12,995 bases of DNA from a virus (IMGVR_UViG_3300022561_000567:1-12995), one strand, 5' to 3'. Counted from the first letter of the stretch, positions 2,646-12,995 are shown. The notes: generated from the letters alone by a model not told the origin. Translations and numbers: made by a program.

Positions 2646-3257
2646 ATGTCTGACGAAATAGAATCAGTAGAAGTTCAAACCGCATTGGACGAAATCCAAA
2701 ATAGTCTTGAAGATTTAAAGCAGACTGTCATTATTAAGAATAAAAACCAAAACATTTGGCTAAAAAAAATGGAACATGGCCTAAAGATTATTAAATGGTC
2801 TAAAGAAAAATATAGGATGCAATTTATAGCTCCACCTCAATATGTTTTTCAGCGCGATATTTTCTATTGTCACTTAGGGGTAAATATAGGGCAAGAGGAG
2901 TATTGGGATAGGCCTGTCGTTGTATTGCAAAATGACTTAGGAAATAAAAGCTCCACTACTACAATTATCGCTCCAATTACAACTTGCGAGGGCAGCACTT
3001 TAAAAGAATTAAATGGGGAATGGTTTTTAGACTCGCTTGAATTGGACGGAACAACAAAAAGCAGAAAACTATATTACTTTGAAATCTGCGTAGAATTAGA
3101 ACCTAATTTTAAAAAAGAAATTAAAGGTATTATAAATTTAGCTCAAATAAGAGTCATAAGTAAAAAAAGGCTTATATCTCCTGATGTAGCTAAAATCACA
3201 GTCGGCACGAAAAATAAGATAAACCAATCATTAAAGCGACTTTTAAATATATGTTAA
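2646..3257 (+). CDS. PemK/MazF-family endoribonuclease toxin homologue with an N-terminal extension of about 60 aa
   Basis: 203-aa ORF with an AAAGAGG RBS 7 nt upstream. Residues 70-113, RDIFYCHLGVNIGQEEYWDRPVVVLQNDLGNKSSTTTIIAPIT, closely parallel the Bacillus MazF/NdoA core [43 protein letters not shown]. The C-terminal LAQIRVISKKRL matches LEQIRTIDKQRL. The first 25 residues hold 8 Asp/Glu and look helical. Confidence 0.85.
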   Translation: MSDEIESVEVQTALDEIQNSLEDLKQTVIIKNKNQNIWLKKMEHGLKIIKWSKEKYRMQFIAPPQYVFQRDIFYCHLGVNIGQEEYWDRPVVVLQNDLGNKSSTTTIIAPITTCEGSTLKELNGEWFLDSLELDGTTKSRKLYYFEICVELEPNFKKEIKGIINLAQIRVISKKRLISPDVAKITVGTKNKINQSLKRLLNIC

Positions 3258-3304
3258 AAAAAACCATTGCGCTAGATTGACACCTAGTCTATACTTAAGT
3301 CAAT

Positions 3305-3488
3305 ACAACATTTAGCGTTCGGTACTTTGTACAGAACAAACGGACAACTTTGAGCGGCCAGCATTTTATGCTGGCCAAACGTATAATATCTTTGATAATT
3401 GGGGCATATAATATAAAAACAACTTTTAGCGTCTTAGTTTTTACTAAGACAATAGCCAACTTTTAGCGGCCAGCATCTTATGCTGGCC
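3305..3488 (+). repeat. Four units of a conserved 12-13-mer, (A/C)CAAC(A/T)TT(T/G)AGCG, each followed by a 20-21-nt hairpin
   Basis: Unit 1 is acaacatttagcg (3305-3317) with hairpin 3317-3337 (gttcggtac ttt gtacagaac). Unit 2 is acaactttgagcg (3344-3356) with hairpin 3356-3376 (ggccagcat ttt atgctggcc). Unit 3 is acaacttttagcg (3419-3431) with hairpin 3431-3450 (gtcttagt tttt actaagac). Unit 4 is ccaacttttagcg (3456-3468) with hairpin 3468-3488 (ggccagcat ctt atgctggcc). The stem sequences differ between units but pairing is kept. Two TATAAT boxes (3382-3387 and 3407-3412) separate the two pairs of units. Confidence 0.7.
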
Positions 3489-3524
3489 ATTTACTTTACC
3501 CATTTTTTTTTAATACTTAATAAC

Positions 3525-3552
3525 AAAAAAAAGCCCTGACAATATCGTCAAG
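3525..3552 (-). terminator. Probable rho-independent terminator, minus strand
   Basis: On the minus strand, CTTGAC gatatt GTCAGG (6 bp including one G-U pair), then GC, then TTTTTTTT (plus-strand A-run 3525-3532). Confidence 0.5.
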
Positions 3553-3658
3553 ACTTTATCAGCACAACATATATAATTTTGCTAAGACAATAAAGCACGA
3601 TTGCAATGTCAATAATTATAAAAGTCATGCACGCCTGGTACATCAATAGCAATTCCAC
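3548..3658 (-). CDS. Possible 36-aa hydrophobic peptide (type I toxin-like or holin-like); not in the ORF track
   Basis: I translated this by hand. A GTG at 3658 lies 5 nt after GAGGTG. The product is (M)ELLLMYQACMTFIIIDIAIVLYCLSKIIYVVLIKS, with the stop at 3548-3550 inside the terminator hairpin. In-frame ATGs at 3643 and 3628 would give 31-aa and 26-aa forms. It is short enough to be a chance ORF. Confidence 0.3.
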   Translation of the reverse strand: MELLLMYQACMTFIIIDIAIVLYCLSKIIYVVLIKS

Positions 3659-3705: not shown

Positions 3706-3900
3706 ATTTGGCGGATGGGACGGATTGGACGGAATTTCAATAAACTCTCTATATATACTATTCTCTCATGATGGTTTTACTATTATTATGTCCATTCCGT
3801 CAAAAAAAGAAATATAAAACAGTATAAAGCCATAGCACGTAAGGGTTTTCGGCATTTGGCGGAAGGGTAAAAAAAGGCGTTTATCCGCCTATTCCGCCAA
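3706..3900. repeat. Cluster of GG(C/A)CGGA(A/T) repeats: three in tandem, plus dispersed direct and inverted copies
   Basis: The tandem run is tggcggat / gggacggat / tggacggaa at 3709-3734. An inverted partner, gtccattccgtc, lies at 3790-3801. The 10-mer ATTTGGCGGA recurs at 3706-3715 and 3854-3863. An inverted TTGGCGGAAT lies at 3891-3900. Confidence 0.55.
3868..3890 (-). terminator. Weak terminator overlapping the stop codon of the 94-aa gene
   Basis: On the minus strand, AGGCG gataaa CGCCT (a 5-bp stem) is followed by TTTTTT. The short stem means low confidence. Confidence 0.4.
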
Positions 3901-4173
3901 TATTTTCTGTTCTTCGTCTTGAAAAAATGTAATTACCTTTTGAATTTTTAATTTCAGGCAATCAACTTCGTCGGTATTTTTATTGAGTTCAAATGCTTGC
4001 ATAGCTGATACTATTATTTTTTCCTTATCATCTAACCTTCCCCATAATTCTATAAATTTAATATGATCATTTTCTTCAGTAGCTTTAGATAAATCACCAC
4101 ATATTTTACATATATTATCTACAAACTCTTGATCCTTGCTAAACAGATCTACCCATTCATACATTTGAATCAT
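3889..4173 (-). CDS. Hypothetical acidic helical protein, 94 aa
   Basis: The ORF has an AGGGGGA RBS 7 nt upstream of the ATG at 4173. The sequence is rich in D/E/K and looks helical. I recognise no motif. It is convergent with the MazF-like gene. Confidence 0.6.
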   Translation of the reverse strand: MIQMYEWVDLFSKDQEFVDNICKICGDLSKATEENDHIKFIELWGRLDDKEKIIVSAMQAFELNKNTDEVDCLKLKIQKVITFFQDEEQKILAE

Positions 4174-9740: not shown

Positions 9741-10004
9741 TTATTTATTTATTTTTGTCAGAAATTTATCCCCGGGAAAATTCCCTGCATACCTAGATCC
9801 TGCAGATACTTGAACGCCTATTTGATTAATGTCAAATCCCATGCGTTTTATCGTTCGCTTGAAATTGCTTAATGGAACACGCCAACCGTATGGAGTTTTT
9901 TCAAACTCAGACCGTATTTTTTCAAAACAAAACCATTGAATTATTCCCGGATGTCCACATAATCGGAGCTTTAACCATTTAATTAACTCAGCATTATGGC
10001 CCAT
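9741..10004 (-). CDS. Hypothetical protein, 87 aa, immediately upstream of the portal
   Basis: The ORF track starts at a TTG (10022). The ATG at 10004 lies 5 nt after GGAGAGG, so I prefer it. It overlaps the preceding ORF by 11 nt, which suggests translational coupling. It occupies the position where a small terminase usually sits, but I see no recognisable motif. Confidence 0.55.
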   Translation of the reverse strand: MGHNAELIKWLKLRLCGHPGIIQWFCFEKIRSEFEKTPYGWRVPLSNFKRTIKRMGFDINQIGVQVSAGSRYAGNFPGDKFLTKINK

Positions 10005-10212
10005 CATTCCCTCTCCGTTCAATTCTTAAAAAATTACTTGGGCTTGCTGCATCGTCGATCCAGCCGTCTGTGCCCATATCCATGGAAAGTACATTTCCGT
10101 CGCTTGTTAGTGCTAAACAAATTATTGGTGATTCTATTTCCTGATTGTCATTTTTATAAATTGCAAATAGATTTTTAGGCGCTGGCATTATTTGAATTAT
10201 TTTATCTGTCAT
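9994..10212 (-). CDS. Hypothetical protein, 72 aa
   Basis: The ATG at 10212 has an AAGGAG RBS 8 nt upstream. It is the first gene after the origin. I recognise no motif. Confidence 0.6.
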   Translation of the reverse strand: MTDKIIQIMPAPKNLFAIYKNDNQEIESPIICLALTSDGNVLSMDMGTDGWIDDAASPSNFLRIERRGNDGP

Positions 10213-10229
10213 GTTTTTATCTCCTTTTT

Positions 10230-10481
10230 GTCTACCCTTTGTCTACCCTTTGTCTACCCTCGCCTAGACACCTTCAACCCTTATGAATACTAGCTTCGTG
10301 ACGTGTGTCTACCCTGTCTACCCAAATTTATACCCCTTTTCCCTGTTTGCCCCTCTATCTGTTTTTTACCAACTCTTTTAATAGAAAAAGGGTAGACAGG
10401 GTAGACAATGCCTTTCAGCCCTTATAAAACCTAGGTTTATTCTTGTCTACCCCCCTAGACATTTGCCTAGACAGGGTAGAC
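10230..10481. repeat. Iteron-type replication origin: nine GTCTACCC repeats plus three CCTAGACA repeats
   Basis: Forward GTCTACCC lies at 10230, 10241 and 10252 (11-bp phasing) and at 10307, 10316 and 10445. Reverse GGGTAGAC lies at 10390, 10399 and 10474. CCTAGACA lies at 10263, 10454 and 10466. The repeats flank a pyrimidine-rich, AT-rich core (10324-10389). The cluster abuts the 3' end of the VapE-like helicase gene and slightly overlaps it. Confidence 0.75.
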
Positions 10482-12868: not shown

Positions 12869-12995
12869 TTAGTACCGGGCCGTGGATATATTGATATATG
12901 GACAGCTCAAAACCGTATATTGACCTGACCACATACCAACATAACCACAACCCCTACAGGCTACGATTTTTATAATTTTCCCAAGAACTGGGGAA
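12869..12995. repeat. Terminal direct repeat, copy 2 (identical to 1-127)
   Basis: Same 127-nt string as 1-127. The unique length is therefore 12,868 bp. Confidence 0.95.

Follow-up and report, generated by a model that had tools for sequence, protein, structure and literature searches.

A long MazF/PemK toxin with a downstream structured RNA: a candidate type III-like toxin-antitoxin pair

Results

A long MazF gene and an RNA array on a small phage-like element

The locus described here consists of a gene for a 203-aa MazF-family protein and, on the same strand, four motif-plus-hairpin units at 3305-3488. The window, by which we mean the whole stretch of DNA that was analysed (IMGVR_UViG_3300022561_000567:1-12995), represents a complete circular element of 12,868 bp, because positions 1-127 and 12869-12995 form a perfect 127-nt direct repeat. 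Independent assemblies of the same 12,995-nt contig were present in several metagenomes, and a megablast of the whole window against the INPHARED phages gave no match. Among the genes of the element are those for a major capsid protein, a portal, an 812-aa tape-measure-like protein, a VapE-type helicase/primase and an excisionase-like HTH protein, whereas none of the ORFs searched matched a terminase, integrase or protease. We conclude that the element is a satellite-like or miniature phage. Almost all of its genes lie on the minus strand, and the only convincing plus-strand gene is that of the long MazF. The features of the locus are as follows, with R1 denoting a covariance model and A4 its seed alignment, both described below.

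2646..3257, plus strand: gene for a long-form MazF/PemK endoribonuclease of 203 aa (ORF, Pfam PF02452, profile, Foldseek, invariant residues)
2646..2843, plus strand: codons for the N-terminal extension, residues 1-66, a family-specific predicted helical hairpin (AF2 model, profile)
3279..3284, plus strand: TTGACA hexamer, placed where homologues have the -35 box of the RNA promoter (sequence); its -10 partner is weak here
3301..3380, plus strand: RNA module A, units 1 and 2 (R1 66.9 bits, E=3e-10; contained in seed alignment A4)
3305-3316 and 3317-3337, plus strand: motif (ACAACAUUUAGC) and hairpin of unit 1
3344-3355 and 3356-3376, plus strand: motif (ACAACUUUGAGC) and hairpin of unit 2
3415..3492, plus strand: RNA module B, units 3 and 4 (R1 46.7 bits, E=4e-6; outside the seed alignment)
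3419-3430 and 3431-3450, plus strand: motif (ACAACUUUUAGC) and hairpin of unit 3
3456-3467 and 3468-3488, plus strand: motif (CCAACUUUUAGC) and terminator-like hairpin of unit 4, followed by a U-rich tract

The 203-aa protein is a member of the PemK/MazF family

The protein matched the Pfam family PemK_toxin (PF02452) with E=1.5e-14 and 54.6 bits (cut-off 23.1) over residues 69-199, in agreement with the preliminary description of this DNA, which had recognized a MazF ORF of 203 aa. In a family profile search, the nearest solved relatives were the B. subtilis EndoA/MazF structures 4mdx and 1ne8 (E ~1e-17). An AlphaFold2 model of the protein (pLDDT 88, pTM 0.77) consists of a MazF barrel plus extra strands at 117-141, and the top 50 matches of a Foldseek search against the PDB were all MazF-family toxins (target TM score 0.75-0.83), with only the core being covered. 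A search of 5.8 billion proteins returned only 17 relatives of the long MazF, each 200-239 aa in length. R89 and T112/T113 are invariant across 17 homologues, and Arg25 and Thr48 of B. subtilis EndoA, which we take to be the catalytic pair, align with R89 and T112. Hence, the concern raised beforehand that catalytic residues might turn out to be missing on alignment did not materialize. Its sequence, its fold and the residues that align with the catalytic pair all place the long MazF in the PemK/MazF family, and, judged from its sequence, it appears to be catalytically active. Neither PADLOC nor NCBIfam holds a model for the protein, and tblastn searches of phages and of PLSDB plasmids with it gave no match.

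The long MazF carries a conserved N-terminal helical domain

The family is further characterized by an N-terminal extension of ~65 aa, which was predicted to form a hairpin of two helices (residues 2-28 and 35-59; pLDDT 88). The extension is present in all 17 relatives, with W51 invariant; it matched no Pfam family and shows no similarity to MazE/PemI. When a profile of the extension alone was run against 1.84 billion representative proteins, 18 proteins were retrieved, all of which are MazF fusions or truncated fragments, the long ones being fusions of 200-231 aa. We considered a stand-alone N-domain as an ancestral antitoxin and rejected this idea, since all short matches open to inspection are truncated or frameshifted copies. 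At one locus (L261:3001-3622), a frameshift found in two samples splits the long MazF into overlapping ORFs of 65 aa (N-domain) and 151 aa (core), and the RNA is still present downstream.

The preliminary description had put forward a single-chain toxin that is auto-inhibited by an acidic N-terminal domain. The first 25 residues of the window protein indeed contain 8 Asp/Glu and 1 Lys/Arg; this acidity is, however, particular to the window copy and not a feature of the family. In many homologues, the first 25 residues are basic or neutral, and the number of Lys/Arg in the extension equals or exceeds that of Asp/Glu in every homologue, making the domain neutral to net basic. The proposal thus loses its premise: the domain itself is conserved, but its acidity is not, and it never occurs as a separate antitoxin-like protein.

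The long MazF has no conserved protein partner

In the 380 nt upstream of mazF, we found only spurious ORFs of at most 62 aa, none of them on the plus strand with a plausible start context, so that the earlier statement that this region lacks an antitoxin ORF stands. An adjacent co-transcribed MazE/PemI gene, the mark of a type II MazEF/PemIK system, is absent from the long-MazF locus. The neighbours of the long MazF are unrelated between loci, and in every one of these the gene stands alone. Its neighbours in the Bacillus cereus group are a type I restriction-modification system and a serine recombinase; in Clostridium intestinale and metagenomic elements it is adjoined by rolling-circle Rep genes, and in phage-like contigs tape-measure and other phage tail genes are nearby. 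One such phage-like contig bearing another long MazF also contains a group I intron (L011:9221-9466; Rfam 71.7 bits). Because no neighbour from the window, including the 94-aa protein encoded at 3889-4173, has a homologue in 25 other long-MazF loci, we conclude that the long MazF lacks a conserved protein partner.

The 94-aa protein had been named as the more ordinary candidate for a conventional protein antitoxin, and it is small, acidic and nearby. Its gene is, however, convergent and 630 nt off, and the best tblastn match of the protein over the 25 other long-MazF loci reached E=0.18 over 23 residues, which means that it has no homologue near any other long MazF. Nor did it give a significant match in Pfam, PHROG, NCBIfam or PADLOC, the best being far below threshold. 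We regard it as extremely improbable that this protein is the antitoxin.

A structured RNA follows every long-MazF gene

We compiled 27 distinct long-MazF loci from genome, viral and metagenome collections; they derive from the Bacillus cereus group, Clostridium, Thermoanaerobacterium and Desulfosporosinus as well as from phages and plasmid-like elements. In all 27, a motif-hairpin RNA lies just past the stop codon, within about 30-150 nt, and the long MazF is the only gene that is always linked to this RNA in the loci examined. Two units are present per locus, and four in nine of the loci, with hairpins of 8-9 bp and loops of 3-4 nt; a terminator often ends the RNA. The units are preceded by a sigma-70-type promoter-like site, which matches at least 10 of 12 consensus positions within 110 nt past the stop codon in 18 of the 27 loci, a score attained by only 6% of windows drawn at random from these loci. 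In loci with a clear promoter, transcription is predicted to start at a conserved AC(A/U)A, with which unit 1 begins; a similar CAAC stands at the beginning of unit 2.

The hairpins are supported by covariation. In a MAFFT alignment of 17 modules (A4), 95.4% of the cells are paired, whereas this value dropped to 32-40% when the 3' partners were slid by 1-3 columns. Double compensatory changes occur in all 18 pairs of the alignment, and the covariation score was reached by none of 500 shuffles. Many U-G pairs in the stems would be C-A mismatches on the other strand, from which it follows that the functional strand is that of mazF and that the functional molecule is RNA.

The covariance model R1 was built from A4 and run on the window together with 251 fetched loci (252 sources, 1.53 Mb). 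All matches with E<=1 directly follow a long MazF gene, among them 14 modules outside the seed, while weaker minus-strand matches overlap the same palindromic hairpins; in an alignment of 31 model matches, 95.5% of the cells are paired. Over 216 ordinary MazF-family loci, R1 gave no match. The co-occurrence that the preliminary description had suggested looking for in databases is thus seen at 27 of 27 long-MazF loci and at 0 of 216 ordinary ones. At E<=0.01, the model alone detects 21 of the 27 distinct loci; two more (L008 and L020) reached E=0.04-0.05 in the larger search, and four (L019, L177, L253 and L261), whose units have 4-nt loops or a different spacing but are plain by eye, are missed.

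No Rfam family reached its gathering score in the window, whose array was also searched at E<=10, or on the RNA of 15 homologous loci, and exact-pattern scans of IMG/VR for the RNA gave no match. A 'pemK RNA' motif was discarded as a candidate because it did not match; PMC5737381 does not use the term in its main text.

The single-stranded motif is not the same in all clades. The window and B. cereus have ..UUUAGCG, the Thermoanaerobacterium group has ACAACAnAnAUC and UCAAC.., and two further groups have ACUAAUAAUGUGUG and ..UAGCAG, respectively. Motifs are more alike between the two units of a single RNA than between units taken from separate loci (4.45 versus 2.78 of 8 positions; permutation p<0.0002). 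Such likeness within an RNA would be expected if both units were read by one co-evolving partner, for example a homodimeric protein.

The RNA array of the window

In the window, the first motif of the array begins 48 nt past the mazF stop codon, and no plus-strand terminator was found from there to the last hairpin (3468-3488), which itself gives a terminator-like call. The number of units, their distance from the stop codon, the shared strand and the lack of an intervening terminator all agree with what had been reported from the first inspection of the sequence. Each unit consists of a motif such as ACAACWUUUAGC, a single-stranded stretch of ~12 nt, and a hairpin with a stem of 8-9 bp. Modules A and B are two-hairpin direct repeats, which are 112 nt apart and share 78% identity over a 55-nt repeat; the hairpin stems differ between the units of the array. 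Folding of the RNA at 3300-3500 (plus strand) gave z = -5.3 relative to shuffles.

The promoter of the window RNA scored at best 9 of 12 consensus positions, with only the TTGACA box well kept, and read-through from mazF probably supplies most of the RNA. Given this weak promoter, it is not evident that the RNA exceeds the toxin in the window.

Unit 4 (3456-3492) shares a 13-nt identity (CCAACUUUUAGCG), the following hairpin and CAUUU with the enterobacterial RNA SdsR/RyeB. Although it gives the best Rfam score for the RNA, 17.2 bits (threshold 38) with E=1.3, this resemblance is probably due to chance, and we rejected an SdsR identity of the unit.

A second long-PemK family is also followed by a small RNA

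On one of the contigs (L009), there is another long PemK, 199 aa in length, which is unrelated to the first and belongs to a family of 20 members of 193-258 aa with Clostridium, Bacillus, Paenibacillus, Brevibacillus and Schinkia as hosts. Three of its loci were examined:

L009:636-1430, second long-PemK locus
L263:2501-3285, second long-PemK locus
L264:2501-3415, second long-PemK locus

In all three, a promoter, a conserved small RNA and a terminator lie directly past the stop codon. The RNA is composed of AUAUUGA, a GCGC..GCGC hairpin, CUAGCC, a second hairpin and the terminator, and it differs from that described by R1. Few as they are, these three loci suggest that a long PemK with a downstream small RNA may be a recurrent design.

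Discussion

Relation to known toxin-antitoxin systems

MazF is a textbook type II toxin, a type defined by its protein antitoxin MazE, and ToxN of the type III systems has a Kid/MazF-like fold. The long MazF shares its toxin family, its fold and the conserved residues aligned with the catalytic Arg/Thr of EndoA with the type II MazEF/PemIK systems, such as EndoA-EndoAI of B. subtilis and MazEF of S. aureus. It differs from them in that there is no mazE/pemI, in the 65-aa N-terminal helical hairpin and the beta-strands inserted at 117-141, and in the downstream gene for a structured RNA.

With the type III systems ToxIN, CptIN and TenpIN, the long-MazF module has in common an endoribonuclease toxin, a linked non-coding RNA of tandem units and the lack of a protein antitoxin. 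Those systems are found on phages, plasmids and defence islands, the long MazF on phages and plasmid-like elements. The toxin itself belongs to PF02452 and not to the ToxN/AbiQ, CptN or TenpN families; PemK_toxin was the only significant Pfam match, and PADLOC returned none. It also has an extra N-terminal domain. The RNA is located downstream of the toxin gene in every long-MazF locus, usually with its own promoter, whereas that of ToxIN, CptIN and TenpIN is upstream, with a terminator in between. Finally, the RNA of each of the 27 loci consists of two to four degenerate motif-plus-hairpin units of 38-56 nt (the 78% identity of the two window modules illustrates their divergence), in contrast to the near-identical, pseudoknot-forming repeats of 34-45 nt in type III systems. 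The module falls outside ToxIN, CptIN and TenpIN, but the best-supported interpretation is that it works like a type III system.

According to a 2025 survey (PMC12283969), only three type III families are recognised, and in these systems the RNA neutralises the nuclease through direct binding. A further likeness concerns the type III-like AbiF/RCd22 of Clostridioides difficile, for which a preprint (bioRxiv 10.1101/2025.04.15.648962) describes an RNA with two conserved motifs that directly binds and neutralises a prophage-borne toxic protein. The AbiF RNA motif (abiF) nevertheless represents a different family, no Rfam family having reached threshold on the long-MazF RNA. Full-text literature searches turned up no account of a MazF/PemK toxin that has an RNA antitoxin or RNA partner, or of an orphan or solitary MazF with an sRNA. 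Judged from these searches, a MazF gene followed by a probable RNA antidote has not been described before.

Proposed mechanism

We propose that the locus encodes a type III-like toxin-antitoxin pair, in which a true MazF toxin would be neutralised by the downstream RNA, and assign this reading a probability of about 0.55. The RNA is probably the antidote because the long MazF never has a gene for a protein antidote and always has the structured RNA downstream. A MazF held by its own 3'-UTR repeat RNA was one of two options raised in the preliminary description. The strict co-occurrence and the covariation support the core of that idea; the picture of a 3'-UTR repeat does not fit as well, given that the RNA has its own promoter in most homologues and that its units are degenerate.

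In this model, the RNA would be made in excess, from its own strong promoter in most homologues, and in the window mainly through read-through from mazF supplemented by weak internal promoters. Bound directly to the MazF dimer, with one unit per subunit, as a pseudo-substrate or product, it would keep the nuclease inactive as in type III toxin-antitoxin systems. Upon loss of the RNA supply, be it through loss of the element or through transcription shut-off during phage infection, the stable nuclease would be freed and the cell would arrest. Because unit 1 opens with AC(A/U)A and unit 2 with the similar CAAC, cleavage between the units would give equivalent pieces, and the toxin might process its RNA as ToxN does ToxI. 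A role in addiction or abortive infection is plausible, because this system of ~0.85 kb sits on phages and plasmid-like elements and beside restriction-modification genes.

Several observations weigh against an RNA antitoxin. The gene order is opposite to that of ToxIN, CptIN and TenpIN, and no terminator sets the ratio of RNA to toxin. The RNA is made up of simple hairpins of divergent sequence rather than near-identical pseudoknot-forming repeats, and the conserved N-terminal domain of the long MazF could itself be regulatory. The weak promoter of the window RNA also counts against this reading.

Alternative explanations

Linkage and covariation fit any functional RNA partner equally, including a cofactor, a regulator or a preferred substrate. 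The RNA could accordingly serve the toxin as a cofactor, scaffold, preferred substrate or sensor instead of inhibiting it, for example by directing or activating cleavage or by giving rise to stable small RNAs with a function elsewhere. Together with the co-variation of the motifs, the strict linkage and covarying stems indicate a functional partnership but not its sign, and the net-basic N-terminal domain could be an added RNA-binding module. Yet an active MazF without an inhibitor should be hard to maintain, and 27 loci on diverse elements have an intact gene; in addition, strong constitutive-type promoters and tandem units fit an antidote that is supplied in excess. We therefore consider a non-inhibitory RNA unlikely. 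Another possible role for the toxin's own N-terminus would be that of a built-in inhibitor, i.e. a fused antitoxin that blocks the RNA groove until its removal or displacement, with the RNA serving neutralisation not at all or having a different role. Fused single-chain toxin-antitoxins such as EzeT and CapRel exist elsewhere, the locus has no gene for a protein antitoxin, and the domain is conserved, confined to the long-MazF family and packed against the core in the high-confidence model (pLDDT 88, pTM 0.77). The acidity that motivated this idea is, however, not conserved, with Lys/Arg at least as numerous as Asp/Glu in every homologue; the domain is never found on its own beside a short MazF, the short matches being truncated or frameshifted, and it resembles neither MazE/PemI nor any Pfam family. 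Since a fused inhibitor would also leave the strictly linked, covarying RNA unexplained, we judge it to be decidedly unlikely.

A small RNA with its own promoter beside a toxin gene is also reminiscent of some type I systems, and the RNA might base-pair with the mazF mRNA and so repress its translation or reduce its stability in a type I-like or sRNA-type manner. Lying on the same strand as mazF and not overlapping it, the RNA cannot be classed as cis-antisense. With the mazF 5' region (-80..+40), the predicted duplex energies of 18 loci averaged -26.4 kcal/mol for cognate and -27.6 kcal/mol for non-cognate pairs, with scattered ranks, and for the whole mazF mRNA cognate duplexes were likewise no better than non-cognate ones. 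We rejected antisense pairing of the type I kind on these grounds, and base-pairing with the mRNA in general is very improbable.

Wider implications

Returning to the RNA as antidote, we see roughly even odds that the long MazF founds a new type III-like family of RNA antitoxins on a genuine MazF/PemK toxin, distinguished by the inverted gene order, an independently transcribed hairpin RNA and a dedicated N-terminal RNA-handling domain. Such a family may be one instance of a wider theme, in which case many 'orphan' MazF toxins annotated as type II may have RNA partners. If our reading is correct, a MazF lineage in which a structured RNA replaces MazE would bridge type II and type III, implying that the antitoxin type can switch within one toxin family, and it would account for a class of 'orphan' MazF genes to which annotation pipelines give a type II label. 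Given the clade-specific motifs, the RNA-protein pairs would also offer a ready orthogonal set of RNA-nuclease combinations.

Additional sequence features of the element

Several further features were noted in the window. A long imperfect hairpin of ~31 pairs at 7-87, to which several microRNA-precursor models match, lies beside the point at which the assembly closes the circle. At 301-416 on the minus strand, within an 870-nt stretch that has no convincing gene, there is a sub-threshold match to the Rfam EGFOA RNA motif (26.8 bits, gathering score 37.7; E=0.012 when 900 nt were searched). A weak match to the Rfam DUF2815 RNA motif (25.2 versus 41.2 bits) at 10210-10249, also on the minus strand, is located directly upstream of a 72-aa gene (9994-10212).

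The non-coding region from the RNA array to the 94-aa gene contains repeated GGCGGA/GGACGGA-type motifs in direct and inverted orientation (3706-3728, 3854-3867, 3794-3804 and 3883-3900), which could be iterons, a packaging site or a regulator site. Downstream of the 94-aa gene are two minus-strand terminator-like hairpins with U-tracts (3530-3557 and 3875-3890), which would halt transcription before it enters the RNA array and mazF in antisense direction. On the plus strand, a strong hairpin (AAAGUGCUG...CAGCACUUU) at 2528-2575, followed by a U-tract, lies 70 nt 5' of the mazF start. A promoter-like site (2304-2333) is found upstream of this hairpin, which could represent a leader terminator or a small RNA in its own right.
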